A stretch of 64,000 bases of DNA from Minisyncoccota bacterium (GTDB lineage Bacteria > Patescibacteriota > Minisyncoccia > Phycocordibacterales > UBA2100), in assembly GCA_031291875.1 (NCBI GenBank), contig JARLIE010000165.1, forward strand, positions 1,119 to 65,118, read 5' to 3'. Position 1 is the first letter of the stretch. Each line of letters opens with the position of its first letter. Of this stretch, positions 11,127 through 44,277 are shown in pieces. A program made the translations under genes and the position numbers. The notes below the pieces were generated by a model, which had not been told where the DNA came from, did no database searches, and saw only the letters and a program-made list of their open reading frames with translations.

Positions 11127-11153
11127 GCGGAAATTGTAGCATTTGTTTTACCG

Positions 11154-26644: not shown

Positions 26645-27916
26645 ATGAACTACAACACCCACACCCTCAAAAACGGCCTGCGAGTCGTCCTTGCCCCGAT
26701 GCCGGGCACCGAGACCGCAACCGTCGTTATTATGACTGGCACCGGCTCGCGCTATGAGGACGAGCGGGAAAACGGCCTCGCGCACTTTCTCGAGCACATG
26801 TTCTTTAAGGGTACAAAAAAACGACCAAGCGCGAAGGCGATCAGTGAGGAGCTAGATGGCGTCGGCGCGGTTTACAACGCGTTTACGTCCAAGGATCGCA
26901 CAGCGTACTACGCCAAGGTCGGTGCCCAATACGTGGAGGTCGCGCTAGACGTAATTACGGATATCTTTTTGAACTCGACGCTGCCTGAAAAGGAAATCAA
27001 CAAAGAGCGTGGCGCGGTCATTCAGGAAATAGATATGTACGAAGATATTCCGATGCGCATTGTCGACAATGTCTTCGAGGAGCTCCTCTTCGGCAAGGAT
27101 CACCCGCTTGGCCGTACCATTTTGGGGCCAAAAGAAAATATCCGTGCGTTTTCTCGCAAGGATTTCGTGACGTACCGCAAAAAGCATTACAACGCAGCGA
27201 GTTCCGTCGTTTGCGTAGCCGGCAACTTTGACGAGAAGAAGACCTTGGAAAAAATACAGAAGGTGTTCGGCAAATTGCCGAAGGCGAGCGTCTCGAAGCC
27301 GATGCTCTTTGCGGACGCGCAGCGCGGCGCGCGCGTCGCGATCAAGCAAAAGAGCACTGACCAGACGCAGCTCATGCTCGGACTGCCCGCCTATCCCTAC
27401 CTCCACAAGGACGAATACGCGCTTGCGGTGCTTTCGACCTTGCTCGGCGGCAGTATGTCGAGCCGACTCTTCACTGAAGTGCGCGAAAAACGTGGTCTTG
27501 CCTACTCGGTGCAATCCTGGATCGAGAAATACCCCGACACCGGCTATTTTGCGGTGCAGGCGGGCGTCGAACACGGCAAACTCGAAAAGGCCATAGAAAC
27601 CATTATCGCTGAATTCCGCAAAGTGAAGGTGAAAAAAGTTTCTGCTGCGGAACTAAAGAAGGCCAAGGCATACTTGAAAGGAACGACAACGCTCTCACTC
27701 GAAACCAGTGACGAGGTTGCCCAAAACGCGCTCACTTCTCTGCTTGAAATCGGTAGAATTCGTTCGCTCGAAGAGCGCCTGCAGCTGATCGATAAGGTTA
27801 CGGCCGAAGATCTTCAACGCGTCGCCAAGGACATTTTCAAATCTGAGAAGTTGAACCTCGCTATCATCGGGCCGCACCCGGACGAACACAAATTCGTTCC
27901 GCTTCTCAGGATCTAG
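26645..27916 (+). CDS. M16-family zinc peptidase (pitrilysin/insulinase-like).
   Basis: HFLEHMFFKGT (inverted zincin HxxEH) plus the downstream E of the motif. 423 aa. Confidence 0.8.
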   Translation: MNYNTHTLKNGLRVVLAPMPGTETATVVIMTGTGSRYEDERENGLAHFLEHMFFKGTKKRPSAKAISEELDGVGAVYNAFTSKDRTAYYAKVGAQYVEVALDVITDIFLNSTLPEKEINKERGAVIQEIDMYEDIPMRIVDNVFEELLFGKDHPLGRTILGPKENIRAFSRKDFVTYRKKHYNAASSVVCVAGNFDEKKTLEKIQKVFGKLPKASVSKPMLFADAQRGARVAIKQKSTDQTQLMLGLPAYPYLHKDEYALAVLSTLLGGSMSSRLFTEVREKRGLAYSVQSWIEKYPDTGYFAVQAGVEHGKLEKAIETIIAEFRKVKVKKVSAAELKKAKAYLKGTTTLSLETSDEVAQNALTSLLEIGRIRSLEERLQLIDKVTAEDLQRVAKDIFKSEKLNLAIIGPHPDEHKFVPLLRI

Positions 27917-28593
27917 AGCCAGCTGATCGGCTGCTTGCCGTGCGCAAGTAGGTACTGATTTGTTTTGCTGAAGGGCTTGGAGCCGAAAAATCCGTGGTAG
28001 GCGGAGAGCGGCGATGGGTGCGCCGATTGGATAATCTCGTGCTTTGCCCAATCCACCAGGGTTCCTTTGGATTTTGCATAGTTGCCCCAGAGAATAAAAA
28101 CGAGGTTTTCTTTTTTGTCGGAAAGCAGACGAATCACGGCGTCAGTGAACTGCTCCCATCCCTTGCCTTGGTGCGAACCCGCTTTGTGTGCCTGTACGGT
28201 TAGTGTCGCGTTCAGAAGCAAAACTCCCTGCTTGGCCCAACGCTCCAAATCGCCCGTTCGATGCTCGAGCTTTTGCCCGAGATCACTCTCTAGTTCTTTA
28301 AAAATATTTTGGAGTGAGGGCGGAAGCCGCACACCTTCATTTACTGCAAAGCAAAGTCCATTGGCCTGCCCCGGACCGTGATACGGATCCTGGCCGAGAA
28401 TAACAACTTCGACCTTATCGAACGGGCAAAGCTCAAATGCGCGAAAGATATTCTTTGGTGCCGGATACACGATGGCGCTTTTATATTCGCTTTTCACGAA
28501 CGCTCGGAGAGTTGTGAAATAGTCTTTCCCGAACTCCTCTTCAAGAGCACTTTTCCACGACGGCTCCATCTTGACGTCATCCGCGTCAGCCAT
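27913..28593 (-). CDS. ung: Uracil-DNA glycosylase (family 1).
   Basis: VVILGQDPYHGPGQANGLCFAV and a downstream HPSPLS motif. Confidence 0.88.
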   Translation of the reverse strand: MADADDVKMEPSWKSALEEEFGKDYFTTLRAFVKSEYKSAIVYPAPKNIFRAFELCPFDKVEVVILGQDPYHGPGQANGLCFAVNEGVRLPPSLQNIFKELESDLGQKLEHRTGDLERWAKQGVLLLNATLTVQAHKAGSHQGKGWEQFTDAVIRLLSDKKENLVFILWGNYAKSKGTLVDWAKHEIIQSAHPSPLSAYHGFFGSKPFSKTNQYLLAHGKQPISWL

Positions 28594-28596
28594 ATG

Positions 28597-28851
28597 CTAC
28601 CGAACGCCTTCGTCGAAAAGAATCTCGTGTTTTCTTTCAATACCACCGCGATTGTAACCTCGCATACTGCCGTCACTCGCGATGACGCGGTGGCACGGGA
28701 TCGAAGGATCGTAGTTGGAGCGCATAACTGCGCCGACGGCTCGCGCTGCTTTCGGATTACCCGCTCTCGTCGCTACTTCTTTGTAGGTCATCGTCTTCCC
28801 TTTGGGAATTTTTCGGACGATGTCGCGGACTTTGTCTGCAATAGTTTTCAT
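28597..28851 (-). CDS. Stand-alone O6-alkylguanine-DNA alkyltransferase C-terminal (DNA-binding/active-site) domain protein.
   Basis: IPCHRVI active-site motif and an MGMT-type helix-turn-helix. The ~84 aa form starts at the internal Met with a 4-nt overlap; the ORF extends to 28962. Confidence 0.65.
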   Translation of the reverse strand: MKTIADKVRDIVRKIPKGKTMTYKEVATRAGNPKAARAVGAVMRSNYDPSIPCHRVIASDGSMRGYNRGGIERKHEILFDEGVR

Positions 28852-29663
28852 ATACCGAGTGTTGCGCGCTGATCCGGTTGTTCCATCGCCTGCTTCTTTG
28901 CCTTCGCTTGGAATGGGATCAACTTCTTGCCCACTGCTTCGCGGTAGCGGCAGTAATCGCAATCTGCAGACGACTCGGGCAACTCGTCGCTATCTAAACA
29001 AGTCTTAATTGCGACCAGCGTTCCTTCAACCCACGAATCGTCGCCGCTGTACGGAATAAGCGTAAGTTCGAACTCGAGCTTTCCGTCGAACGCCTCTTTG
29101 TCTTTGCTGGCATTTGCATATACCCAGTAGCCTGTATTTGAAACCGTAAATCCATTCTGGCGCAAAAGCCACTGATAGACCTCGATCTGGCGCTTGTAAC
29201 CGTCGTGCCAGGCTTCGTCGAGCGATTCTATTTTTCCATCCTTGCTCGTAGCCTTGTAGTCGACTACGATTAATTCATCGTTGGGCGTTACCCAGATATC
29301 GTCGACGCCGCCGCAGACAGTGAGTCCGGTGTGGTGTTCGCAGACTATGCCGCCGCGCAGCGAGTCGCGCCACTCGTCCATTTGTGTATGGGCGAATGGA
29401 ACGGCGTCGAGCCCGTAGGCTTTCATCAGCGGGTGTGCCGATTTTGCGGCACGATGCGCGTCGAATTCTTTTTTAAGGAGCGCGTCGACTGCCGAGTTGA
29501 GGTTAAAAGGAAAACCCGGCGGCCGAGCCGTGCCGAGCTTGTTGTCGATATAAAAGCAGCGCTTGCAGTCCAAGAAAAGCGAGATTTTCGAACGCGAAAG
29601 ACGGAAATGTTTGCCGCCGTAGTTCCAATTGTGGTTGCGGTCGGGCTTGTAGTAACCACTCAT
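28848..29663 (-). CDS. Cas4-like / RecB-family PD-(D/E)xK nuclease with a predicted 4-Cys iron-sulfur cluster.
   Basis: N-terminal CKRC, central ...VVDYKATSK (D-x-K of PD-(D/E)xK) and a C-terminal CDYCRY. 271 aa. No CRISPR context. Confidence 0.6.
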   Translation of the reverse strand: MSGYYKPDRNHNWNYGGKHFRLSRSKISLFLDCKRCFYIDNKLGTARPPGFPFNLNSAVDALLKKEFDAHRAAKSAHPLMKAYGLDAVPFAHTQMDEWRDSLRGGIVCEHHTGLTVCGGVDDIWVTPNDELIVVDYKATSKDGKIESLDEAWHDGYKRQIEVYQWLLRQNGFTVSNTGYWVYANASKDKEAFDGKLEFELTLIPYSGDDSWVEGTLVAIKTCLDSDELPESSADCDYCRYREAVGKKLIPFQAKAKKQAMEQPDQRATLGI

Positions 29664-30220
29664 CGCGTGAGTATACCACTCCCTCCATTTTGACGCTCAA
29701 AATCACTCTCAATTGAGCCTTCGTGCGCCGCAAACCAATGCTTAAAACGATTTTCTATGTACCACATGCCGGTGAGAACAATGAGCGTTAGCAACGCGGA
29801 AAAGACAGAAACAGAGTACATGCCAAAACCAACCGCCATACCGATTGCCGTTGCAATCCAAAGGCACGCCGCAGTGGTGACTCCATGAACCGTGTCGCCC
29901 CGGAAAATAATCAATCCAGCGCCGATAAAACCGATGCCCGTCACGATACCGGGCGCGAGTTGAAGCGGCTGGATATTGACGACGCCTAGATAAACGCTGT
30001 CGACGTAGTTGGTAATCAGAATGAAAAGGCAGGCGCTCATCGCGACGAGTCCGAACGTGCGCATGCCGGCAGGCTGACGAGCGAATAATGCTCGTTCGGT
30101 ACCTATGATGCCTCCCAAAAAGAGCGCGAGCATCAACTTCACAAACATAACGGCAGTAGGATCGATGAGAAGCGCGGGTCCCGTTATCATAGGCAAAAGT
30201 ATATCATTCAAATACCGCAC
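29660..30220 (-). CDS. mgtC: MgtC/SapB-family membrane protein.
   Basis: 186 aa; 4-5 TM with the MgtC-like N-terminal conserved region (...GGIIGTERALFARQPAGMRTFGLVAMSA...). Confidence 0.7.
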   Translation of the reverse strand: MRYLNDILLPMITGPALLIDPTAVMFVKLMLALFLGGIIGTERALFARQPAGMRTFGLVAMSACLFILITNYVDSVYLGVVNIQPLQLAPGIVTGIGFIGAGLIIFRGDTVHGVTTAACLWIATAIGMAVGFGMYSVSVFSALLTLIVLTGMWYIENRFKHWFAAHEGSIESDFERQNGGSGILTR

Positions 30221-31032
30221 AAGAGGCGTGCCTCATCGAGTACTTTCGGGACCCGATCGGGCTTTACTCCGTATTCTTGCAGGAGGTGCGAGGTCGTCAC
30301 GCTTTTGCAGAGCACAACCTTATTGTCGAGTAATCGTCGTTTCTCGCCCTCACTGAGGGAGGTGAGGCAGGTGATCGGATGCACTTTTCCCTCTTCGATC
30401 ATCGCGAGTAGGCCTCGAGTGCGGGGATAATCCCAGCCCAAGAGAGTGAGGTTTGAACAGCGAGCGTACCGAATTGCATTTCGAGTGAACGTGGTATTCG
30501 TAACCAGCCAGCCTTCGTCGACGCGCGACGAAGCAAGTGGCGCCTGACGGAGGTCGTCGTAGCGCGCTTTGACGTAGAGCGCATCTTTGACGTCAGTCTT
30601 CCCTCCCGGGTCGTTGTGAAATTTTGCCTCGATGCCGATGCGTCTGCCCTGTTTTTCTGCGAGTACATCCACCTCATGAGAAACGCAGCGGCCGGTAAGT
30701 GTTACCTCTGCTTTCGCGCTCCAGCCGTTCGAACGCAGGACTTCGGCAAGAAACGATTCAAACGGGTAGCCAGAGGGGCCCAGCGCGAAGACCGCTCGCT
30801 TGATTGAATAGCGGGCGGCGACCGGCGGAACTTCTTCGTTCTTTAGCGTTTCGAATGCGTGGCGATAGATATCTTCCGTACGTACTCCCGGGTGAATCTC
30901 ACTGAGAACTTTCGCGAGAACACGCGCGCGTGCCGTCGAAGATGCACCGGCGAGCTGCAGTGAGTGTTCAAGCTTTGCCGGATCAAACGGCTCCTGTGTT
31001 CCATCTGCCTTGGTAATAAGAGGATGCGTCAT
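30208..31032 (-). CDS. ATP-cone domain fused to a restriction-endonuclease-like (Mrr_cat-type PD-(D/E)xK) domain.
   Basis: N-terminal ITKADGTQEPFDPAKLEHSL...EDIYRHAFETL is ATP-cone-like. The C-terminal region contains EVDVLAEK...RIGIEAKF (D...E-x-K). The ORF extends to 31194; the internal Met gives a 4-nt overlap. Confidence 0.55.
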   Translation of the reverse strand: MTHPLITKADGTQEPFDPAKLEHSLQLAGASSTARARVLAKVLSEIHPGVRTEDIYRHAFETLKNEEVPPVAARYSIKRAVFALGPSGYPFESFLAEVLRSNGWSAKAEVTLTGRCVSHEVDVLAEKQGRRIGIEAKFHNDPGGKTDVKDALYVKARYDDLRQAPLASSRVDEGWLVTNTTFTRNAIRYARCSNLTLLGWDYPRTRGLLAMIEEGKVHPITCLTSLSEGEKRRLLDNKVVLCKSVTTSHLLQEYGVKPDRVPKVLDEARLLCGI

Positions 31033-31445
31033 AGCGATGATGAAGAAGCAGCGACGTCGGTGATGATGGTTATCGGCAAAGGCTTTCCGTCGAGTGTCGC
31101 TACAAATTGAACGCCTGTTGCCGGCGCAAGCGCAACCGCCTGAAATGCTCGCGGCGCCGGCGCTTTCGGACAATCGATAGAGGGATCTTGCCAACTCTGA
31201 AACGCGAGCAAATATTCGGTATCGGAAACTTTCTGCGTGGCCACACTAAGCTCGTCACAGGAAAGCGGCAATACCAGTATGCCACTCAAACTGTGCGTTC
31301 CCGGAGTTACGATGTCGTGGATAGCGAGTACGCCGGGATTTTGCGCTTGCAAAAGGGCGAAGTTTCCAAGAACAACGAATATCGCAAAGAAGGCCGCGGT
31401 CGCGACGATAGCGAACCAGACGAGTCGTCGGACCGTGTCCATCAT
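31029..31445 (-). CDS. Hypothetical membrane-anchored protein.
   Basis: Single N-terminal TM (LVWFAIVATAAFFAIFVVLG) followed by a soluble domain. Start inferred at MMDTV. Confidence 0.4.
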   Translation of the reverse strand: MMDTVRRLVWFAIVATAAFFAIFVVLGNFALLQAQNPGVLAIHDIVTPGTHSLSGILVLPLSCDELSVATQKVSDTEYLLAFQSWQDPSIDCPKAPAPRAFQAVALAPATGVQFVATLDGKPLPITIITDVAASSSSL

Positions 31446-31476: not shown

Positions 31477-32520
31477 TTACGATAAGCTGTTGATGATGCC
31501 CCCGCCCAAGCAAATTTCGTCTTGATACAGTACGAGTGACTGACCAGGAGCGGCGAGGTGCGCATCGTCGAATGTCACGTCCAATACACCAGCGCTTTCG
31601 TCGATCTTTACCTCAAACGGATGTTCGCGATATCGAGCCTGCGCCTGCAGGGTTGTGCCAGAAAGCGGCACACTTCCGATCCAATGCGGCTGCGCGACGC
31701 TCGCCCGTCGACGATTTGCGTCTTCACGCTTACCAGAAACATGAACAATATTTTTATCGACATCGATGTCGGTAACGAAATGCGTACCAGATCCCGTCGC
31801 GGTAAAGCCATGACGTTCGCCGATCGTATAGAGCGCAGCGCCATCGTGTGAGCCGATACGAGTTCCCTGTTCGTCCATGACATCACCCTTCTTGAGTTCG
31901 ATGAATCGTCCGAGGAACTCTTTGAGTGAGACGTCGCCAACGAAACAGAGACCCTGGCTATCGGGTCGAGATGCGTTCGGTAAGTTGAATTTGTGGGCGA
32001 GTTCGCGCACCTGCGGCTTCTCAAATTCACCAACAGGAAAGAGTGCTCGGGCAAGGTCTTCCTGCGTCAACTGATACAAAAAATAGGATTGATCTTTGTT
32101 TGTATCGAGCCCTCTGAGAAGCTGGTGCGAGCCCTCTTGCGAGCGAATGCGCGCGTAGTGACCTGTTGCGATAGAATCTGCACCGTTTTTGAATGCCCAC
32201 TCGGCAAAATGGCCAAATTTGATCGTGCGGTTGCACAGAACGTCCGGATTGGGAGTTACACCCTGCGAATAGTTAGCGATCATGTCGCCGACCACCTCCT
32301 TTTTATATTCTTCGGAAAGGTCGACCTCGAGAAACGGAATCTGTAGCGCCGCCGCAACGCGCATCGCGTCGAGCCGATCCTCCTTCCAGGTGCATTCAAT
32401 GAACTCCGGGGACCAGATCTTGATGAACGCGCCGACGACAGTGTGGCCGCGCTCTTTTAGGAGCGCTGCTGAAACGGCAGAATCCACGCCTCCTGAAAGC
32501 CCGACAAAAACAGTAGCCAT
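31477..32520 (-). CDS. mnmA: tRNA-specific 2-thiouridylase MnmA.
   Basis: PP-loop SGGVDSAV and the catalytic Cys region. 347 aa from the internal Met. Confidence 0.85.
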   Translation of the reverse strand: MATVFVGLSGGVDSAVSAALLKERGHTVVGAFIKIWSPEFIECTWKEDRLDAMRVAAALQIPFLEVDLSEEYKKEVVGDMIANYSQGVTPNPDVLCNRTIKFGHFAEWAFKNGADSIATGHYARIRSQEGSHQLLRGLDTNKDQSYFLYQLTQEDLARALFPVGEFEKPQVRELAHKFNLPNASRPDSQGLCFVGDVSLKEFLGRFIELKKGDVMDEQGTRIGSHDGAALYTIGERHGFTATGSGTHFVTDIDVDKNIVHVSGKREDANRRRASVAQPHWIGSVPLSGTTLQAQARYREHPFEVKIDESAGVLDVTFDDAHLAAPGQSLVLYQDEICLGGGIINSLS

Positions 32521-33611: not shown

Positions 33612-35096
33612 TTATTTGGGAAGATTCGCGGGAGCTGCCGATTTGGTGGACGGAATGCGCTCCAGACCCGGTGCTTGGACTGTTGCGGACGGCGGATGCC
33701 AGAGAGTAGCCAGTTCTTCGACTGTCAAAATCGAGCTTGGGAAAACCCACGGCGTATGGAATCCAGCGCGACGTCGGTAGACATCAAAAAATCTCCTGGG
33801 CATCAATACATTGCGTCTATATCCATGAAAATCCTGCCACGGGTAATCGAAGGGATTGCCCCAACGCTGCGGTCGAAGGTATGACATATACGTTGGGTTG
33901 CCATAGGGCTTCCAGATCCAGCGAAGGCTCGTGAAATACGGGCCCCGCGGCTGACCGGTCGTGATATAGACGCCGTGGCCGATGAACTCAAACGGCAATT
34001 TGCTGACGTTTCGTTCCATCGATTGCATGATCTGATTTTGCATCCAGGACGGTCTTGGTTGCGGTTGTCGTCCGCTTCCCTCGTGAGCTCCGGACGTTTG
34101 CAGTTCGTGTTGGACCGCCTCAAGCGCTTGCTGCGAAACAATCGCGCCGCGCGATCGCCATTTGTCGACTTCGTCTTTGGTCGCTTTGCGCCAGTCGTCG
34201 TCGCGATCACCTGTACTGAGAATGCCGTACTTGCCACCGCGTCGAATGACCAGCGAGATCCAGGCCTGTTCTTGTGGTTGAATCGAGCTCATGAATTCGA
34301 TAATGGTCGAAAGCGGGTCGACCTTGTGCTCTTCTTTCGGGTCTTTATCGAGCTCGTAATCAATGTAAGTACGTAGCGGATAACAGTCGATGCGGTCGAA
34401 CTTGCCATCGCCGTATTTGCCAAATTTTCCCTGGGGCAATTTGCTCCAGTCGGTTGGGAAGCACCAGTGTTTGTCCGGATCATATTTGAATTTGGACGCG
34501 TAATCTTCGACTTCGTACAATTCGACTTCCGGATACTGGCCGTAGATTGCCTGTTCGACGAATTCCTTCATCGATCCCCAGCACCAGATATAAAAATGAA
34601 CATCGCCGCCGAAGCTCGCGATCTCAAAAGCAAAGAAAGGGCGTACCTGTCCCTTCCAGGCGCGGTCCAAAAAGCTCGCCTCACCGGAAGAGAGCCAAAG
34701 GTTGGTGAGTGCAACCTCCATCGCGCGTGGTGATTTCGTAATGTCTCGCGGGACCTTCATCTCGAGCAATACCGGCTTGCGTCCTGCGAGAAAAAGGGAT
34801 TGCACATACCACACCCAGATTCGGAACGCCCCAATAACGAGAACAACCGGCGTCCACACGGGCGCCGTTCCTACCATCCATTCGAACGCAAAGAGCGGCA
34901 AGTTAGGAATCTCAAGCGATAAAATGCTCAAAAGTCCCAAAAAAAGAATAACGAGGATAAGCGCGCGCGAAACTCCCCACTCGCCGAGCCAATCGACGAA
35001 TTCGTGGAGATTAAAAATGTTGAAGCCGACTGTTTTTTTTCCGACTTTTTCACCAAGTTCGCCGAGAAAAGTCTCTTCACCGTGCCCGCCTGACAT
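33612..35096 (-). CDS. Hypothetical protein with N-terminal TM helices and a large Trp/Tyr-rich domain.
   Basis: 494 aa. No motif I can assign. Confidence 0.4.
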   Translation of the reverse strand: MSGGHGEETFLGELGEKVGKKTVGFNIFNLHEFVDWLGEWGVSRALILVILFLGLLSILSLEIPNLPLFAFEWMVGTAPVWTPVVLVIGAFRIWVWYVQSLFLAGRKPVLLEMKVPRDITKSPRAMEVALTNLWLSSGEASFLDRAWKGQVRPFFAFEIASFGGDVHFYIWCWGSMKEFVEQAIYGQYPEVELYEVEDYASKFKYDPDKHWCFPTDWSKLPQGKFGKYGDGKFDRIDCYPLRTYIDYELDKDPKEEHKVDPLSTIIEFMSSIQPQEQAWISLVIRRGGKYGILSTGDRDDDWRKATKDEVDKWRSRGAIVSQQALEAVQHELQTSGAHEGSGRQPQPRPSWMQNQIMQSMERNVSKLPFEFIGHGVYITTGQPRGPYFTSLRWIWKPYGNPTYMSYLRPQRWGNPFDYPWQDFHGYRRNVLMPRRFFDVYRRRAGFHTPWVFPSSILTVEELATLWHPPSATVQAPGLERIPSTKSAAPANLPK

Positions 35097-35189
35097 GGCA
35101 AAAGTATAGCATTGGAATCACAACGAAATATCCTCGGCAAGAAAGCTTGCCGAGGATAGGTCGTACCAAATCTTTTTGGTCAGTACAGG

Positions 35190-36212
35190 TTACTTTGAGA
35201 GCGCGTAGCGTCCGTCCGGAAGTCGAGTGAAGACGCTGCTTTGGAGGTTGACGGCGATAGTCGCGTCTTTGACGTAGCGTTCGCGTTTTACGCGATCAAC
35301 GATGTCTTCGCGAGAAAGCGGACCTTCGCGCTGCAAGATGCCCTTGATAACCTCGCGAACGACACCCGGTTCATAGCCCCATTCTTTGAGCGCGTAGAGA
35401 CCGCGACCGACGAGCACGAAACGGCCGTCCTTGATGAGTTCGTTGTGAGTCGTCGCAGGATGAGCTTCGCGACCGAAGAGCTTTTCAATGCCCTTTGCGA
35501 CTTCCGTAAAGTGCATCGGAGAGCCGTGGCGCTTCAGCGTGAGATACGCAAAGTCACGGGTGTTCTTGATGCGAACGTGTGGCGAATCTTGGCGACCCCA
35601 CTCCCCGAGCGGGTTTTTGCCGATGCGCTTCGAAACGATGAGCCAGCGGCGCATGACTTCCGGTTCGCGCTGCTTCACGCCCTCCTGCTTGAGGTGCTTT
35701 GCAAAAAGCTGCAAAAACTCCTCTTCCGGCGTGAGGCGGTTGGATTCGATAGATTCGTACAAGTTGGTGAGCGCCGATTCGATTGATTCGGCAAGCTGGT
35801 GGTCGATGTGCCAACGGTCTCGGAAATCGGTCGATTCGCGTTTGTCGTTGAAGTGCGTACCGACGGTGAGCAAAAAGATGAGATGGTTCTCATCGGTTGA
35901 AGTTTTCGCGAGTTCTTCGAGAACTGTTTCTTCCGCCAAGAGGCCGCCGAGAGCTGCGATCGCGCGCTTCATTTCTTCAAGTTCGCTCTGATGCTCCGCG
36001 TAGGCATCTGAGTCGCGAACCGAGGCGAGACCATGGTTCTCGATCTGACGGATGCGCTCGCGAGTGATCCCGTATTCCTTACCGATTGCGTCGAGGGTGC
36101 GGGTCTCGCCCTTCGAATTGAGACCGAAACGGTCGACAAGTACCCGGCGCGAGCGATCCGGGAGGTCGGAAAGGAGGTCCTTCGTAATATTTTTGGGCTG
36201 AAATGAAAGCAT
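35190..36212 (-). CDS. DNA-binding protein with an N-terminal sigma-70 region-4-like HTH and a C-terminal HARE-HTH-like domain.
   Basis: RSRRVLVDRFGL...TLDAIGKEYGITRERIRQIENHGL (region 4) plus a C-terminal MHFTEVAKGIEKLF...GRGLYALKEW. Confidence 0.55.
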   Translation of the reverse strand: MLSFQPKNITKDLLSDLPDRSRRVLVDRFGLNSKGETRTLDAIGKEYGITRERIRQIENHGLASVRDSDAYAEHQSELEEMKRAIAALGGLLAEETVLEELAKTSTDENHLIFLLTVGTHFNDKRESTDFRDRWHIDHQLAESIESALTNLYESIESNRLTPEEEFLQLFAKHLKQEGVKQREPEVMRRWLIVSKRIGKNPLGEWGRQDSPHVRIKNTRDFAYLTLKRHGSPMHFTEVAKGIEKLFGREAHPATTHNELIKDGRFVLVGRGLYALKEWGYEPGVVREVIKGILQREGPLSREDIVDRVKRERYVKDATIAVNLQSSVFTRLPDGRYALSK

Positions 36213-38197: not shown

Positions 38198-38268
38198 CGG
38201 GCTGTAGTATACCGGTAGTACGCACGCTTCGGGTGCGTGTAGACTGGGTTCGATTCCCAGCAGCCCGA
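38198..38268 (+). tRNA. tRNA-Pro (anticodon CGG).
   Basis: Acceptor CGGGCTG/CAGCCCG, anticodon stem CACGC/GCGTG with loop TTCGGGT, T loop TTCGATT, discriminator A. Confidence 0.8.
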
Positions 38269-38310
38269 CATGGCTTAGGTCGCTCTCATCGGAGCGATTC
38301 TTGGCGTGAA

Positions 38311-38381
38311 CGGGCTGTAGTATACCGGCAGTACGCAAGCATGGGGTGCTTGTAGACCGGGTTCGATTCCCGGCAGCCCGA
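38311..38381 (+). tRNA. tRNA-Pro (anticodon GGG).
   Basis: Near-duplicate of the first tRNA-Pro with anticodon arm CAAGC ATGGGGT GCTTG. Confidence 0.8.
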
Positions 38382-38404
38382 AACGATCAGACAGGTATTC
38401 CAAA

Positions 38405-38440
38405 AGCAAAATGACCTCGCCTTGAGCGGGGTCATTTTGC
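38405..38440 (+). terminator. Hairpin terminator-like element after the tRNA-Pro pair.
   Basis: AAAATGACCTCGCC...GCGGGGTCATTTTG inverted repeat. Confidence 0.4.
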
Positions 38441-38739
38441 GAGCGGGTGTGGACACATCGTATATTACTTCGAACCGACTGAAAACCTATCTAGAACGCT
38501 TTTGGGAGTACTATCAGACCAGTCCGGTATTGCAGGAATTGCTTGAAGATGCAAAGCCGTTCGCGGTTCAGTAGGGGCACCATGAGAGTGTAGAAGTATG
38601 CGGTAGGGCGCAACAACTACGACCAGAACCCCACTAACTAGTGGGCATGTAGTGGAAGCCGTCAAATATCGGTGAAATAACGGAGAGATGTGAAAACGGG
38701 ACGCTCCTTCTCTGGCAACTTTCGATCTGTGGCGTGTCG

Positions 38740-39045
38740 CAAAACTCGGAAAACTCACTGCAAGAACTACTCTCGAAACTTCTAGGGGCCATTACAGCGA
38801 CTTTGTCTAAATTTAGAGCCATAATTTAGCACTCTCTCAAAGAAATAAAATGGAGTTTCGCGAGTGGTTTGTGTAGTAAAACCAGCTAGTTTTCCGACAC
38901 AAAAATACGTTCGACTTTCAGAGGTCATACGTGCTCCGGGAACTCCAAAAACTCACTCCGGAAATTGTACAGGAACCCCTGAGTTGGTCGACGCTTTTTA
39001 ATCTATAAATAGAGCCATTTATTGAGCGCAGCTTAGAAAATTGTT
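38740..39045. repeat. Two degenerate ~100-nt direct repeat units in an AT-rich non-coding region.
   Basis: Unit A: aaaactcggaaaactcactgcaag...ctaaatttagagccataatttag. Unit B: aactccaaaaactcactccggaa...ctataaatagagccatttattgag. They are about 195 nt apart. Confidence 0.5.
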
Positions 39046-39102
39046 GTGAGTTTTTTGACAGTTTTCGGAGCGAAAATGTCGAGTTTTTGGAGCAGAAAAT
39101 CC

Positions 39103-39792
39103 TCACTTGGATGGTCGTTTCAGAGGTTTATTCAGTAGGGTCAGTTTCGGCACGTCCCTGCCGTCCCACGCGGTCTTTAAGCGGATCTCCGTCACCTGGC
39201 CGCTTTCTTGGTACAGCTTCACAACGAGCACCGACTCACCGAGTGCGCCGCGTGACAAGGCGGCCACATCGTTGCCCGCAGCAACGGCTAGCCGAAGCGA
39301 CCGATCTGCAAGCATTTCCCGGTCCAGCATGTTGTTGAAGATGTCGAGGTAAACGGTCTGGTGCGGGTAGATGTCTCTCACGGCGGCACCGTCTTTGTTC
39401 AGCTGCCCGTGCGTCCATAAAAGCGGCATCGGGAAAAAGTCCTCACGCCGGTCTCCGCTGTCGATGATGCTTTCTATGTACGCCTCAACCGACCTCGCCG
39501 TGAAAGCTCCTTTGTTTTCGATGATGACTCTGCCGACATGAAGGATCGCCATTGACTCCGAGTCATCGACTTCTGATGGGTCTCGGTGAGGTGTGACGGT
39601 CACTCCTTGAACGACGAGATCGCTTTTCTCGGGCCGTCGCCTCCACCATTCGCTCAAAGGTGGGGACAAAATACCGATCGCGAGGGCGACTACGACTGCC
39701 CAAAACTCAGGCGTGAGATAAAAGAGCGTTGAGAAATGAGCTGCAATACTTTGGAGCGCACCTATCACCGACTGGAGTTGGCCCGGTTGCAT
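39103..39792 (-). CDS. Hypothetical membrane-anchored protein.
   Basis: 229 aa with an N-terminal TM (FWAVVVALAIGILSPP). Confidence 0.4.
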   Translation of the reverse strand: MQPGQLQSVIGALQSIAAHFSTLFYLTPEFWAVVVALAIGILSPPLSEWWRRRPEKSDLVVQGVTVTPHRDPSEVDDSESMAILHVGRVIIENKGAFTARSVEAYIESIIDSGDRREDFFPMPLLWTHGQLNKDGAAVRDIYPHQTVYLDIFNNMLDREMLADRSLRLAVAAGNDVAALSRGALGESVLVVKLYQESGQVTEIRLKTAWDGRDVPKLTLLNKPLKRPSK

Positions 39793-39830
39793 CCTTCAAT
39801 CTTACTCCTCATTGAGATCTCTGCACCAAT

Positions 39831-40346
39831 TTAATTGGTCAAATATGGCGTAGCCAAAGAGACGAAGCCTTCAATTGAAGTGCATTTTTGTCCATTCACC
39901 GTACAGTCGTCTATCGCCGCATCCGCCGCATTTATCGTTCCATCTGGGTTCAAGCCGAATGTCATACTGCCTAGAGTTGCGTTAGCTTCAACATCAACTA
40001 GAAAACGATTGTCAGAAAAGCCCAAATCGCTATTGTTGGACGTAGAGATAACATGGAACTTCCAGTCAACCAAGATAAGACATTTATTAAGCGTGGTGTT
40101 GTAGTGATCTTGATAATTTAATGAGTCTCCCGCGGCGACGTTAACACTAGTCGCGCCCCATTTATTTTGGAAATAAGTTGCGGCATCCTGGGCGCATGAC
40201 CTGCTTAAATTGAAGTTTGTACTTTGCGTTTGTGCTGTCGCTGGTTGGGTTACTGCTGAACGGTCAGAGCTTTGCACAATAACGTATGCACCTACGGCTA
40301 AAATTGCAGCTCCAATACCGATCAAAATGATGTTATTCGAGTTCAT
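39831..40346 (-). CDS. Hypothetical secreted protein (signal peptide/anchor, 4 Cys).
   Basis: MNSNNIILIGIGAAILAVGAYVIV... N-terminus. 171 aa. Confidence 0.4.
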   Translation of the reverse strand: MNSNNIILIGIGAAILAVGAYVIVQSSDRSAVTQPATAQTQSTNFNLSRSCAQDAATYFQNKWGATSVNVAAGDSLNYQDHYNTTLNKCLILVDWKFHVISTSNNSDLGFSDNRFLVDVEANATLGSMTFGLNPDGTINAADAAIDDCTVNGQKCTSIEGFVSLATPYLTN

Positions 40347-40361
40347 AAATATGGCCGCTGC

Positions 40362-41126
40362 TTATTGCGCCTGCATCGTCACCGACGTGCTTGTGCCGTA
40401 TCCAGTGAAAGTCACAGTGTTGGTGCCAGGCTGCGTAAACACGTAATTGAACTCATAGAAAGGATACGTGCCGTAGACTCCGCCAACCGTGAACATGCTT
40501 TCTGATCCCGATCCGTGAAGCACCATGTTTTGGTTGGGATCGGTCGTCGTTATCGTTATGTCGCCGCCGTCGGTCGCGCCGCCCTGTGGTGTAACGACGA
40601 TTACGCCGAGATCGGCATACTGACTGTCTGAAAGGTTACCCGCTTGGTTTAATTCATTTGAGCACGACGCGCCGGTTGGTTCTACGGGCGAGCATCCGTC
40701 CGCAATTGCTTTTATTATCGAAGACGACGCCACAGTGTGCTGAGCGTTTGTATTATACGAATTGGATCCGACCGAATTGTTTACCCCGCTTCCTGAGCTG
40801 TAGCCCACAACCATGAGGCTGTACTGACTCTGCATGATTGTTGAGGTGGCCGATTGCGCCGAAGCTGTGGGGCTGGGCGTACTTGATATCGTTTGCGAGC
40901 TTTGTGGAGCCTGTGGCGCATTTTGTGCGGGTTGCTGAGCCGTTATCGTAGCTGCCGCGCCGATCGGTGAGGTTGAAGCCGCAGCAATTGCTTGGTCGGC
41001 CGATTGGATCGCGTCATTGACTATTGCGTTTGCCTGAGCTCGTAAATCTGCCGGCACGTTTGTTGCCGACTGGAGGAGAATAAGAAGCGCGAGTGCTGTT
41101 TTGAGTAATGCGATGGCCTGAGACAT
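40362..41126 (-). CDS. Hypothetical secreted Ser/Thr/Gln-rich protein.
   Basis: Signal peptide MSQAIALLKTALALLILLQSATNVPA, then low complexity, then a Gly/Thr-rich C-terminal domain. Confidence 0.4.
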   Translation of the reverse strand: MSQAIALLKTALALLILLQSATNVPADLRAQANAIVNDAIQSADQAIAAASTSPIGAAATITAQQPAQNAPQAPQSSQTISSTPSPTASAQSATSTIMQSQYSLMVVGYSSGSGVNNSVGSNSYNTNAQHTVASSSIIKAIADGCSPVEPTGASCSNELNQAGNLSDSQYADLGVIVVTPQGGATDGGDITITTTDPNQNMVLHGSGSESMFTVGGVYGTYPFYEFNYVFTQPGTNTVTFTGYGTSTSVTMQAQ

Positions 41127-41219
41127 ATGCTTGTGCTAAGCGGGTAATGTCTGAGGCGGGAGAAAACACAAAGCCCGCCACCAGGAGGCCTTGCGGCCAC
41201 ATAAGAGTTTCCCCTTATG

Positions 41220-41262
41220 ACGTACAGCACGCCCTGAATGACGGGTTTTCTGTGCTGTACGT
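41220..41262. promoter_or_regulatory. Perfect 11-bp inverted repeat (candidate operator) in a divergent promoter region.
   Basis: ACGTACAGCAC-N21-GTGCTGTACGT between the secreted-protein operon (minus) and the wHTH regulator (plus). Confidence 0.5.
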
Positions 41263-41391
41263 TTTCGCGCCATGCCACCGATTTCTCGATGGTTTAGGCA
41301 CTAGCCTTGCGGCTCGATATTGGTTGTGTGTGATAACGATAGCATAGCGAGCCGTCGGCATAAAGTGCGCTCCGTGATAAAGTCAGCGTTA

Positions 41392-42084
41392 ATGATTGAC
41401 CAGTATCTAGCGCAAAGGGCCATCCTAGAGGCGCTAGAGGGCAAACTTGAGGCCATGAGAGGTTCCGGCGAGCTCGGGGCCGATACTATTGTCGAGCTCT
41501 ATTTCTTTGACGATCTGGTACAAAAGCATAAAACAATTTTTAGAGTTGCGACCGTTGAAGACGTCGCTCTCGCGATCTCAAAAGTTGAGGAAAAATCGGA
41601 CGGTCGTTTTAAACTCCTCTCACTCAATCCCTCCATAGCTGATCGGGACGTAGTAAGAGTTGCCCTAACACACGAGGCGGGTAGGCCGTTGACTGACATT
41701 TCAAATCTCTATTGGAAACTAAAATATAAAGAGGGGTCTAGTGTGACAAATGCGCCTCTCGACTCAAAGATATTTTGGTTGACTCCCCGCGAGATATATT
41801 CGACGATCTCAAATGCCAAGAGGTCATTCTCCTTTCGGCCAGGCGGCGTGCAGTTTCGTCTATTGCGCTGGTTTTCCGAACACAAAGGGTTCACTGGCAG
41901 TAAAGAGCTCGCGCAGGAACTCGATACGACAACGCGAACGATTGCCACAGACATCGCAAAATTGAAACGTAAGGCCGATGACGCTTTTGGTCTCGACGAA
42001 AGTAGTTTTATCGAAAGCAGCCAGGGCGAGGGCTACCGGCTTGCCGCAGCAATAAAAATCAAACTGGATCATGGTACGTCGTAG
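41392..42084 (+). CDS. Transcriptional regulator with a C-terminal OmpR/PhoB-type winged-helix DNA-binding domain. The N-terminal domain is atypical and possibly a degenerate receiver.
   Basis: The C-terminus ...QFRLLRWFSEHKGFTGSKELAQELDTTTRTIATDIAKLKRKADDAFG...GEGYRL matches the trans_reg_C pattern. The ORF opens at 41320. Confidence 0.55.
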   Translation: MIDQYLAQRAILEALEGKLEAMRGSGELGADTIVELYFFDDLVQKHKTIFRVATVEDVALAISKVEEKSDGRFKLLSLNPSIADRDVVRVALTHEAGRPLTDISNLYWKLKYKEGSSVTNAPLDSKIFWLTPREIYSTISNAKRSFSFRPGGVQFRLLRWFSEHKGFTGSKELAQELDTTTRTIATDIAKLKRKADDAFGLDESSFIESSQGEGYRLAAAIKIKLDHGTS

Positions 42085-42193
42085 CTGCTGTTGATAAAGT
42101 CCGCCTGCTCCTCTCAATTTACGACTCCTTTCGGAGAGCGATTGTAGCTATGCCGTATATACGCCGTAGCGTCCTCTCTCGCAAAATTGAGAG

Positions 42194-42427
42194 GTGAAAC
42201 AAGAAGCCCATGCCACAGATGCGAGCGACTTTCCGGTTGCCTTTAGCTCCGAACATGCCCACGATAATACGCGAGGGCCGGTCGTTTCTGTGGCAGAATA
42301 TAGAAAGCTCGCTGCGGACGAAACGAGCAGCGATGATGACATCCGACGGCGATTGCAATACTTGGAAGCGCTGTGTAGGCATGTGATCCGAGAGGAACTC
42401 AAAAAATATGTCGATGAACAAAATTGA
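42194..42427 (+). CDS. Small acidic hypothetical protein upstream of, and overlapping, the recombinase start. A recombination directionality factor role is possible.
   Basis: 77 aa ORF. It overlaps the recombinase ATG by 20 nt. Confidence 0.3.
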   Translation: MKQEAHATDASDFPVAFSSEHAHDNTRGPVVSVAEYRKLAADETSSDDDIRRRLQYLEALCRHVIREELKKYVDEQN

Positions 42428-44189
42428 AAAAGAAATGCAGCAGCTCGTACAGAACGCCAATCGCTATGTTGGCAGAGAAGGCCTTGTTTATGCGCGTGTC
42501 TCGAGTAAACGGCAAGAGTTAGAAGGTCACGGACGCGAAGGGCAGGAGGAACGCTGTAAGCAGGATTTGCGGTCAGTTGGCGTACCCTATTGCCGCACAT
42601 TCCCCGACACTTTCACCGGCGCTGGCGACTTTATGAAGCGTCCAGCAATGCGCGAGATGCTGGCGTACATAGACTCCAATCCGCACAAAAAATACGTAGT
42701 GGTATTCGATGATCTAAAACGATTTGCGCGAGATGTTGAAGCGCATATCAAATTAAGAGCGGCCTTCAAGTTCCGAGATGTTGAATTACGCTGCCCCAAC
42801 TACAATTTCGATGAGACTGAAGAGGGAGAGTTCGCAGAAATTATATTTGCCGCCCAAGCACAGCTTGAGCGCAAGCAAAATCGGCGTCAGGTCATCCAAA
42901 AAATGAAAGCTCGCCTAGAGCTTGGATACTGGCCCTTTGCCGGTCGTAGAGGATACGACATGGTCAAAGACCCTATGCACGGCAGATTGCATGTTCCAAA
43001 CAAGGAGGGCAAAACAATTATGCGGCAGGCACTTGAGGACTTCGCCTCAGGCAATCTGGTACGCAGAGTTGATGTTGCGCGTTTTCTCTTCGATCGCGGC
43101 TTCTGGAAAAAGTCAAAGAGAACTCCCGAGCATTTCATCGACGACGCCACGGCGATGTTGCAGGACGTATTTCACGCGGGCTACGTTGAATATCCTAAGT
43201 GGGGCGTGTCGCGCCGCAAAGGTCGGCATAAAGGAATAATCTCGTTGGATACACACGAGCTCATACAGAAACGATTGAAAAAGGACGTCGCCAGCGCGCG
43301 TATTCGATTGGATATATCGCCAGAGTTTCCCTTGCGCGGATTGCTTGTATGTCCTGACTGCAAAGAAAAGCTCACCGGCGCACCCTGCAAAGGTGGCCCT
43401 AAAAAATACAGCTACTATTACTGCAAAAATAAAAAATGCGCCCTTTATTCCAAGATGTTGCGAAAGGCAGATGTGGAAAGGGACTTCAACAATCTGCTCC
43501 GCCGCAATCGCCTCAAGGCAGATCTAGATGCGGTCGTGGAGCTAACCTATGATCGGGTGTGGAAGCAGGAGGTCGTCGATGTAAGGCGACAACAAGCTCT
43601 CAAGGAGCAGCAACGAGAGGATTTGCAGCAAAAGATACGTGACCTTTCCGAGCTTGCCCGTACGACCACGTCAGCAACAGTAAAAAATGTCTACGAAAGC
43701 CAGATCGAAGAAGCCGCCAACGAGTTGGAACAAAAGGGGCCTGCAAACGCCTCAAAACGCGACCTCAGAGTGCCTTATCGAACTGCACTCGCTAAGTCGA
43801 CTGCTGTGCTGAAAAACCCAATAACCATATGGGAAAAGGTGGATGTGATGGAAAAACATCGCCTCTATTTTTTCCTTTTCGAGGCGCGTTTGCCTTACAC
43901 CAAAGGAGAGGGCTATCGAACTGGCGATTTACTAAGCAGCACAAGGGTTTTTGAGGAGTTTGCCAACGCAAACTCGGATGATGTGGACCTGAGGGGAATC
44001 GAACCCCTGCCTCCGCAATGCGAATGCGGCGTTTTACCACTGAACTACAGGCCCGAGTGTCGCAATATCCTATCAGCACTACCGGATATTTACAATTTAC
44101 TCGAGCCCGTTCGAAAACTCCTTAGCGAGCAGCCACTTTTACTTTCTCTCCGCAGCGCAAACAGCGAGTCTGCGCCAATCTTGTCTTGA
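42408..44189 (+). CDS. Large serine recombinase (resolvase/invertase N-terminal catalytic domain, recombinase domain and zinc ribbon).
   Basis: Catalytic region GLVYARVSSKRQ...; the resolvase fold; a later zinc-ribbon CPDCKEKLTG...YYYCKNKKC; and a coiled-coil. The last ~70 codons overlap an antisense tRNA-Ala and a small minus-strand ORF, so the C-terminus is uncertain. Confidence 0.8.
   Translation: MSMNKIEKEMQQLVQNANRYVGREGLVYARVSSKRQELEGHGREGQEERCKQDLRSVGVPYCRTFPDTFTGAGDFMKRPAMREMLAYIDSNPHKKYVVVFDDLKRFARDVEAHIKLRAAFKFRDVELRCPNYNFDETEEGEFAEIIFAAQAQLERKQNRRQVIQKMKARLELGYWPFAGRRGYDMVKDPMHGRLHVPNKEGKTIMRQALEDFASGNLVRRVDVARFLFDRGFWKKSKRTPEHFIDDATAMLQDVFHAGYVEYPKWGVSRRKGRHKGIISLDTHELIQKRLKKDVASARIRLDISPEFPLRGLLVCPDCKEKLTGAPCKGGPKKYSYYYCKNKKCALYSKMLRKADVERDFNNLLRRNRLKADLDAVVELTYDRVWKQEVVDVRRQQALKEQQREDLQQKIRDLSELARTTTSATVKNVYESQIEEAANELEQKGPANASKRDLRVPYRTALAKSTAVLKNPITIWEKVDVMEKHRLYFFLFEARLPYTKGEGYRTGDLLSSTRVFEEFANANSDDVDLRGIEPLPPQCECGVLPLNYRPECRNILSALPDIYNLLEPVRKLLSEQPLLLSLRSANSESAPILS
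43984..44054 (-). tRNA. tRNA-Ala (anticodon CGC) with the G3:U70 identity pair.
   Basis: The reverse complement folds as GGGCCTG TA GTT CAGTGGTAA AAC G CCGCA TTCGCAT TGCGG AGGC AGGGG TTCGATT CCCCT CAGGTCC A. The acceptor stem has the G3-U70 wobble. Confidence 0.8.
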
Positions 44190-44277
44190 TGTATTTATTG
44201 CCGCATTCGCATACGACGACGGCGATCTCGTTCGGATTATCAATCCACTTACCGTCTTTGAAGAAAGTTTTTCCCAT
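44122..44277 (-). CDS. Small zinc-ribbon protein (51 aa) immediately downstream of the DEAD-box helicase gene.
   Basis: Manual translation gives MGKTFFKDGKWIDNPNEIAVVVCECGNKYIKTRLAQTRCLRCGEKVKVAAR with a CxC...CxxC pattern. It is below the ORF-track length cutoff. Confidence 0.4.
   Translation of the reverse strand: MGKTFFKDGKWIDNPNEIAVVVCECGNKYIKTRLAQTRCLRCGEKVKVAAR

Follow-up and report, generated by a model that had tools for sequence, protein, structure and literature searches.

A predicted ATP-cone nuclease of the AF1548 family at a conserved chromosomal locus of Patescibacteria

We describe here a gene in a 64,000-nucleotide stretch of DNA from a Minisyncoccota bacterium (contig JARLIE010000165.1 of assembly GCA_031291875.1, positions 1,119 to 65,118), hereafter the window. 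The gene lies on the minus strand (30208..31032, with its stop codon at 30208-30210) and encodes a 274-residue protein in which an ATP-cone, a PD-(D/E)xK nuclease core of the Mrr_cat type and an AF1548-like C-terminal domain follow one another. A first-pass annotation, made from the sequence of the window without database searches, had proposed a nuclease gated by the nucleotide pool and acting as a defence or abortive-infection effector or a toxin. The window is ordinary chromosome, with genes for FtsW, MraY, an Asx-tRNA synthetase, DnaK, AlaRS, MnmA, MltG, PBP2, MreB, RseP, Fmt and DnaB, and the nuclease gene is part of a long same-strand run of overlapping or abutting genes.

Gene, domains and conserved residues

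The extent of the gene given at first pass is exact: an ATG at 31032 opens a reading frame of 274 codons that ends at 30208, and the motif quoted from it is present in the translation as SHEVDVLAEKQGRRIGIEAKFHN. An NCBI record (P0001) is the exact window protein, labelled 'restriction endonuclease [Candidatus Pacebacteria bacterium]'. We regard the ATG at 31032 as the real start because it overlaps the stop codon of the upstream open reading frame (ORF) in the sequence ATGA, because close homologues are also 274 amino acids long, and because a 91%-identical relative shares the 4-nucleotide overlap; the longer ORF that mechanical calling opens at a TTG (31194) is an artefact. The small upstream ORF (31029..31445, minus strand) encodes about 138 amino acids from an MMDTV start, has no Pfam match, and carries a hydrophobic N-terminal stretch that we read as one transmembrane helix; its homologues occupy the same position in most close loci, and the overlap of its stop with the start of the nuclease gene suggests translational coupling.

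The three domains can be placed with some precision, all on the minus strand. The ATP-cone, a beta-hairpin with a helical bundle, occupies residues 5-82 (30787..31020); an invariant GPxGxxFE linker and the PD-(D/E)xK (Mrr_cat) core occupy residues 83-198 (30439..30786); and the AF1548-like helical domain occupies residues 199-274 (30211..30438). Pfam scores the ATP-cone (PF03477, residues 6-79) at 32.6 bits against a gathering cut-off of 25.8 (E 1.2e-7) and Mrr_cat (PF04471, residues 87-198) at 43 bits against 21 (E 5.7e-11); the fusion of these two domains, recognized at first pass, is thus borne out with both models above their gathering thresholds and with agreement from Foldseek, whereas the third domain had been overlooked. 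With the Pfam model for that domain (PF22357, AF1548-like_C) the window protein reaches 13.4 bits, short of the 23.9 required (E 0.083), and the relatives P0288 and P0302 pass. Despite this sub-threshold score we consider residues 199-274 homologous to the C-terminal domain of AF1548 because of the direct alignment to its structure, PDB 1Y88: a phmmer search aligns residues 94-273 of the window protein with it (E 5e-27), the family profile matches it at E 1e-53, and a profile of the C-terminal domain alone matches it at E 2e-16, as its sole match in the PDB. The C-terminal domain may be of a helix-hairpin-helix-like type. The Pfam scan of the protein revealed no domain beyond these three, and no NCBIfam model fits it.

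The predicted structure supports the same division. An AlphaFold2 model built from a 62-sequence alignment (pLDDT 96.3, pTM 0.91) was used in place of a discarded single-sequence model (pLDDT 40). Foldseek matches the nuclease and C-terminal part of this model to 1Y88 (E 6e-16, template-modelling score 0.80 on the target), and the nuclease core to the nuclease domains of MspJI, AspBHI, NucS, VC1899 and Can2/Cdn1; the N-terminal domain matches NrdR and several ATP-cones of ribonucleotide reductase (RNR) alpha chains, with a root-mean-square deviation of 1.9 Å over 84 columns for Escherichia coli NrdR (9fvr_D).

Conservation was assessed in 145 full-length representatives of 50%-identity clusters, in 62 diverse members at 35-61% identity, and in a nine-sequence cross-phylum alignment. 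E92, D122, E135 and K137, the putative catalytic residues, do not vary among the 62 aligned sequences, and in the 145 representatives their conservation is 99-100%; they comprise the helix-1 glutamate of the PD-(D/E)xK site (codon 30757..30759, minus strand), the aspartate of the HEVDV motif (codon 30667..30669, minus strand), and the glutamate and lysine of the ExK motif in IEAKF (codons for E135-A136-K137 at 30622..30630, minus strand). D122 corresponds to AF1548 D38, and E135 and K137 to AF1548 E51 and K53; these three AF1548 residues are the catalytic set predicted in the Global Ocean Sampling paper (PMC1821046), where AF1548 was predicted to be a restriction endonuclease. Further conserved residues on the nuclease side are G85, P86, G88, F91, H119, E120, R157, D160 and T178-N179-T180. 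In the ATP-cone, K8, G11 and K20 either never vary or are conserved at 96% or above, and E14, F16, S24, T52 and Y75 are conserved, so that the window protein retains the K..G..E.F...K signature of ATP-cones, written more fully as V-x-K-[R]-x-G...E-x-F...K-I/L, whose residues we take to be ligand contacts by assignment from RNR and NrdR structures. In the C-terminal domain W200, P203 and P219 are invariant and T221, C242 and E267 are conserved, and all three domains show a similar degree of conservation. The same putative catalytic and ATP-cone residues are retained in the nine-sequence alignment, which spans Archaeoglobi, Candidate Phyla Radiation (CPR) bacteria, Bacteroidota and Chlamydiota. 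We note also three cysteines that do not vary between archaea and bacteria, C116 just ahead of the strand with the catalytic aspartate (codon 30685-30687), C192 in the helix after TNT (30457-30459), and C242 in the C-terminal domain (30307-30309); a metal, redox or structural role is possible for them.

The first-pass annotation had named an inactive fold, its D/E/K residues lost in homologues, as an outcome that would refute it; the invariance of E92, D122, E135 and K137 contradicts such a loss, and a catalytically competent, ligand-binding protein is the reasonable reading of these alignments. Nucleotide gating of the predicted nuclease likewise remains the natural reading because the ATP-cone keeps its signature. 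The same residues bear on a quite different proposal, that the protein is a non-catalytic, NrdR-like nucleotide-sensing binder of DNA or RNA, using the nuclease fold for binding only and controlling, for example, adjacent genes for transporters or nucleotide metabolism. NrdR is indeed the closest structural match of the ATP-cone, the nuclease gene in many cases overlaps, or stands first in, an operon that it might control, and inactive restriction-endonuclease folds are known as binding domains, with weak NA-iREase1 matches here (E 0.04-0.1). Those matches are far under threshold, however, there is no Zn-ribbon or helix-turn-helix domain, and invariance of the four residues across archaea and bacteria would be unexpected in a fold that had lost catalysis; we consider this proposal very improbable. 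An NrdR-like repressor was rejected as a candidate on the same invariant residues and on an ATP-cone that begins at residue 5, with no Zn-ribbon.

Distribution and chromosomal position

The three-domain protein belongs to a large family. At 90% identity it numbers 4,423 clusters by a word-indexed search and at least 4,623 by a profile search; at 50% identity an exhaustive search gave 1,154 clusters when the limit was E<=1e-3, 420 of them with E<=1e-30, and among the best 150 of the 1,154 nearly all are 265-300 amino acids long and align end to end. The combination of ATP-cone, Mrr_cat and AF1548-like_C is therefore the family norm as judged from these sequences, a fusion already catalogued and not new. 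Members are found in Patescibacteria, Archaea, Bacteroidota and Chlamydiota, and a search with AF1548 itself finds orthologues in Archaeoglobus, Geoglobus, Ferroglobus, Nanoarchaeota, Aenigmarchaeota, Korarchaeota, Bathyarchaeia and Altiarchaeales.

The gene model behind the crystallised AF1548 (199 amino acids), itself a family member, seems to be truncated at its N-terminus, because a 265-residue protein 99% identical to it (P0394) contains all three domains with a canonical ATP-cone start (VRKRDGRLEEF...); orthologues in the complete genomes of Geoglobus and Ferroglobus are 261-268 residues long and have all three domains. The only crystal structure of the family, 1Y88, thus hides the sensor domain.

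In every close relative the gene occupies a fixed position, between mnmA and the MgtC gene. Its conserved upstream anchor is mnmA, encoding the tRNA 2-thiouridylase (31477..32520, minus strand; Pfam), and across 42 loci from Patescibacteria genomes the kept order is a sigma-like gene, a DUF8128-like gene, MltG, MnmA, the small membrane ORF (in most close loci), the nuclease, MgtC, a Cas4-like nuclease, MGMT, UNG, M16 and AlaRS. We also assembled a sample of 80 metagenome loci fetched by MnmA, chosen so as not to select on the nuclease gene. Among those with at least 1.5 kb downstream, the nuclease gene directly follows mnmA in 35 of 50, and it does so in every one of the 19 loci with an MnmA that shares 55% identity or more with the window's; the loci that lack it have another gene order, MnmA then AlaRS. 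In 40 close loci with both genes, from genomes and metagenomes, mean identity is 73% for the nuclease, 73% for AlaRS, 59% for MnmA and 54% for MltG, and in 31 more distant loci the nuclease, at 48%, equals MnmA (48%). The gene is vertically inherited at a single locus as a core gene of Paceibacteria-type Patescibacteria, under housekeeping-level constraint.

This conservation bears directly on the proposal that the protein is a nucleotide-pool-gated nuclease of defence or abortive infection, type IV-like or a toxin, triggered when phage perturb ATP or dATP. There are some grounds for it: Mrr_cat domains are frequent in type IV restriction enzymes and defence effectors; a sensor fused to a nuclease is a typical effector layout; MspJI, AspBHI and the cyclic-oligoadenylate (cOA)-gated Can2/Cdn1 are structural neighbours; PADLOC gives the window protein a local match, to the Mrr-like nuclease module of ZorD only (E 1.2e-5), and gives a relative a local match to its CARF-PDDEXK model; and two members are plasmid-borne. 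Against these stand the fixed chromosomal place and AlaRS-level conservation in all close relatives, and conservation as a housekeeping factor in related genomes, seen in 19 of the 19 close MnmA-anchored loci, is the outcome that the first-pass annotation had itself set against its suggestion.

The searches for partners and for mobile relatives point the same way. The annotated or tested neighbours, drawn from about 120 related loci, showed no DNA methyltransferase, toxin-antitoxin or defence partner, and the methyltransferase partner for which a check had been advised at first pass was likewise absent from the window ORFs scanned; the single adjacent methyltransferase, in locus L031, is of the small-molecule type (Methyltransf_11). 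PADLOC found no match for the cassette partners described below or for the window neighbours, save the stand-alone Cas4-like gene, which is also the only cas gene in the window ORFs scanned. A scan of IMG/VR with the family profile found no relative, a tblastn search of 50,697 phage records gave two partial nuclease-domain matches and none of full length, and the BFVD structure library gave single-domain matches only, with no full-length relative. Among 72,556 plasmids there are two full-length matches, both inside a metabolic cassette whose other genes are without PADLOC matches. Two narrower candidates were also rejected, a type II restriction-modification enzyme by the absence of a cognate methyltransferase among the neighbours annotated or tested, and a type IV (Mrr/MspJI-like) enzyme by the absence, in Pfam, of a modified-DNA reader domain (Mrr_N winged helix or SRA-like). 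We therefore do not retain the role in defence, abortive infection or toxicity, which we judge quite unlikely; an architecture of sensor plus nuclease is insufficient for calling a defence gene.

Neighbouring genes and possible role

Directly downstream of the nuclease gene is a gene for an MgtC-family membrane protein (29660..30220, minus strand; Pfam and NCBIfam), whose start is probably slightly inside the ORF. It is followed on the same strand by the Cas4-like PD-(D/E)xK nuclease (28848-29663), an MGMT gene with the C-terminal domain only and an intact PCHR active-site motif (28597 to about 28851), and a family-1 UNG (27913-28593). The mini-MGMT ORF as listed (28597-28962) overlaps the Cas4-like gene by 115 nucleotides, and an internal ATG at about 28851 adjoins the Cas4-like stop and would give an 84-residue MGMT, comparable to the 87-residue gene at the locus of the 91%-identical relative. 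A scan for promoters and terminators gave counts no higher than in shuffled sequence and no convincing terminator inside the run; its sole standout is a terminator-like site with a 13-bp stem (35129-35158) after the sigma-like gene. Upstream of MltG, a 494-residue ORF (33612-35096) has no Pfam match at E<=0.01, and its positional counterparts in loci L134 and L135 are DUF8128; it is a divergent member of a CPR-wide family of unknown function that travels with a sigma70-region-4/HARE-HTH protein (35190-36212).

The main rival to the role that we favour starts from these neighbours. It holds that the protein is a DNA-repair or recombination endonuclease, structure- or lesion-specific, that works with UNG, MGMT and the Cas4-like exonuclease and whose ATP-cone couples incision to the supply of deoxynucleotides for repair synthesis. 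The first-pass annotation had placed the gene in an operon with nucleic-acid enzymes, and a tightly packed same-strand run with the Cas4-like gene, mini-MGMT and UNG is real in the window and its closer relatives; the run also holds MltG, MnmA, the small membrane protein and MgtC, however, which makes co-transcription weak evidence. MgtC separates the nuclease gene from the repair genes, and once identity falls to 44-46% the latter no longer lie near it, whereas MnmA, nuclease and MgtC are kept, MgtC being the neighbour retained furthest into distant Patescibacteria. A gene of the uracil-DNA glycosylase (UDG) superfamily takes the place of UNG in loci L093 and L031, which speaks for repair, as does a DinB gene adjacent to and convergent with the nuclease gene in L038 and L041, although DinB is on the opposite strand. 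The resemblance of the nuclease core to NucS and to modification-dependent DNA endonucleases is also in keeping with repair. Some relatives are labelled 'Holliday junction resolvase', but the JGI labels of this kind are COG-level transfers; Hjc (PF01870), tried as a candidate, has no match in the window protein and scores one relative at 16.1 bits against a cut-off of 21.1 (E 0.011). Against repair, too, the gene's conserved partners outside CPR bacteria are enzymes of nucleotide metabolism and a beta-CASP hydrolase that carries an RNA-specificity domain. Taking both sides together, we consider a repair role unlikely, though it deserves more weight than a role in defence.

Two side observations concern these loci. 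The shorter UDG-superfamily gene lies at a similar position, between nuclease and AlaRS, in L093 (6993-7601) and L031 (8379-8939) instead of the family-1 UNG; by eye its N-terminal sequence looks family-4-like, an apparent non-orthologous displacement in more distant Patescibacteria. Locus L038 (CAZNAA010000001.1, 772,860 bp) and the Levyibacteriota metagenome-assembled genome L041 share DUF2079, the ATP-cone nuclease and convergent DinB, and the label of the former, 'uncultured Gammaproteobacteria', may be wrong.

A different and closer association is seen outside CPR bacteria, in unrelated phyla: the nuclease gene heads a same-strand cassette and is followed in turn by genes for a beta-CASP/RMMBL metallo-hydrolase (about 452 amino acids), a member of the 'thymidine phosphorylase family' (about 500 amino acids) and a ribose-phosphate pyrophosphokinase. 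The cassette is present on the plasmids of Pontibacter actiniarum (Bacteroidota; NZ_CP021236, L139, 1972-6597) and Criblamydia sequanensis (Chlamydiota; NZ_LK031773, L140, 6995-11602), and in the metagenome loci L133 (5001-9667, with PPK2) and L131 (5001-10864, with a P-type ATPase inserted); it is partial in L136 (5001-7215), where its first two genes follow two Usp genes. In L133 the phosphorylase matches the NCBIfam models PRK04350/TIGR02645, with the AMP-phosphorylase model just under its cut-off, and the kinase is of the PRK07199 subfamily. The Criblamydia island also contains a cation P-type ATPase, a phosphoketolase, a glycogen phosphorylase (GlgP) and an acetate kinase. Our literature search found no published function for the cassette, and in Bradyrhizobium diazoefficiens its three partner genes, bll3115-3117, are induced under microoxia (PMC6515984). 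This cross-phylum operon offers a concrete and testable functional context.

Genes for cation transport form a second recurrent association. MgtC is directly downstream of the nuclease gene in Patescibacteria, including L134 and L135; in Ferroglobus placidus a CorA gene (L137, 4958-6001) overlaps it upstream; P-type ATPase genes overlap it downstream in L131 (5848-8508) and L132 (5855-8014); and in one CPR locus an F-ATP synthase operon lies downstream. The recurrence of cation or Mg2+ transport neighbours in four lineages looks more than chance, and we regard it as a lead.

We think it quite probable that the protein is a nucleotide-gated nuclease with a physiological function outside defence. 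The fuller account, which we hold tentatively and at a little under an even chance, is that it is an AF1548-family PD-(D/E)xK endonuclease, switched by adenine nucleotides through its ATP-cone, for nucleic-acid turnover or salvage. The protein would be cytoplasmic and Mg2+-dependent; binding of ATP or dATP at the ATP-cone, or the adenylate charge, would bring about an oligomeric or conformational change that turns cleavage on or off, and the C-terminal helical domain may grip the nucleic acid. This would resemble the ATP-cone mechanism of RNR and NrdR, in which nucleotides drive oligomerisation (PMC9110341, PMC11226230). Cellular or imported nucleic acid would be turned over or salvaged upon a change in energy, nucleotides or Mg2+, and immunity would not be involved. 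A regulated role in turnover or salvage specifically is, taken alone, likewise a tentative proposal that falls short of even chances; we infer it because of the cassette partners (beta-CASP, phosphorylase and PRPP-synthase-like enzymes) and the cation/Mg2+ transport neighbours, and the nuclease may make the opening cut ahead of a route through the beta-CASP nuclease and the nucleotide phosphorylase.

A more elaborate scheme, attractive but in our estimate unlikely to hold in all its parts, makes the ATP-cone nuclease the adenylate-sensing gatekeeper of a conserved starvation pathway. Falling ATP, with Mg2+-ATP, would lead the nuclease to open cellular or imported RNA or DNA; the beta-CASP nuclease would trim the fragments to mononucleotides; and the AMP/thymidine-phosphorylase-like enzyme and the PRPP-synthase-like kinase would recycle them, sending ribose phosphate to energy metabolism or to nucleotide resynthesis. 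In CPR bacteria and archaea the sensor-nuclease would be wired to genes of Mg2+ homeostasis (MgtC, CorA). Were the scheme true, regulation of an enzyme by an ATP-cone would for the first time be seen beyond ribonucleotide reduction.

Several points weigh against the turnover or salvage account. The same-strand DNA-repair neighbours in the window's own clade (Cas4-like, mini-MGMT and UNG) favour a repair role; a search of the window and of related CPR loci did not turn up the beta-CASP/phosphorylase cassette, so that function is transferred by homology at 38-44% identity; and the recurrence of cation-transport genes was assessed by visual comparison of about ten independent contexts and not by a formal statistic. 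The residue after K8 is an alanine in the bacterial members (KADG), whereas archaeal members have the arginine (KRDG) that is usual in RNR ATP-cones; E. coli NrdR also lacks an arginine after its ATP-cone lysine, and nucleotide specificity is not predictable. Literature searches combining the ATP-cone with nuclease and defence topics found no functional or biochemical study of any family member. The family is nonetheless large and old, common to Archaea and Bacteria, and a core component of Paceibacteria-type CPR bacteria, which by most accounts cannot make nucleotides de novo, and it has escaped functional study in the literature that we searched.

Two other regions of the window, apart from the nuclease gene and its neighbours, may be recorded here. 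A patch of lower GC content (about 38200-44200; 0.50 against 0.53-0.56) is bounded by two tRNA-Pro genes (38198-38381) and by a tRNA-Ala(cgc) gene (43983-44054), the latter overlapping the 3' end of the ORF for a large serine recombinase (42408-44189; Resolvase and Zn_ribbon_recom). The patch contains a helix-turn-helix protein and several ORFs without a Pfam match, and looks like an integrated mobile element. A same-strand run at 7403-12692 encodes a histidine kinase of the 7TM type, an ORF whose N-terminus gives a short nitroreductase-like match, a member of the ThiF family and a 512-residue ORF without a Pfam match, and is possibly a cluster for peptide or cofactor modification.

Comparison with known systems

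One close counterpart is Archaeoglobus fulgidus AF1548, whose structure was deposited by structural genomics as a 'protein of unknown function'. The window protein is colinear with it over the nuclease and C-terminal domains and has the same D/E-x-K residues and conserved cysteines; the two differ in that identity is about 35% and that the archaeal KRDG is KADG in the window protein. The 199-residue crystal construct is without most of the ATP-cone, and the arrangement of sensor and nuclease is thus a predicted one.

With the ATP-cones of NrdR and RNRs the window protein shares the fold of the domain and the K..G..E.F...K signature, and probably, by analogy, the logic in which ATP or dATP sets an oligomeric state that in turn sets the activity of the attached module. 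The module differs, a nuclease here as opposed to a Zn-ribbon DNA binder or a reductase, and none of the nuclease neighbourhoods examined showed a link to nrd genes. In the literature searched, functional work on the ATP-cone concerns RNRs and NrdR, and this family would extend the switch to a nuclease.

Enzymes of the Mrr/MspJI type IV group resemble the window protein in the nuclease core, with Mrr_cat above its Pfam threshold and MspJI and AspBHI among the best structural matches; unlike them, the window family has no domain for recognition of modified DNA, is not patchy in its distribution, and has an ATP-cone and an AF1548-like C-terminal domain. The best analogy for a possible working mode is found in Can2, Card1 and Cdn1, the ancillary nucleases of type III CRISPR systems, which also have an N-terminal sensor for a ligand derived from adenine nucleotides ahead of a C-terminal PD-(D/E)xK nuclease and lie in the same structural neighbourhood. 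Their sensor is a CARF domain where the window protein has an ATP-cone, and the window gene, which has no CRISPR or cOA-synthase context, is a core gene and not a defence accessory.

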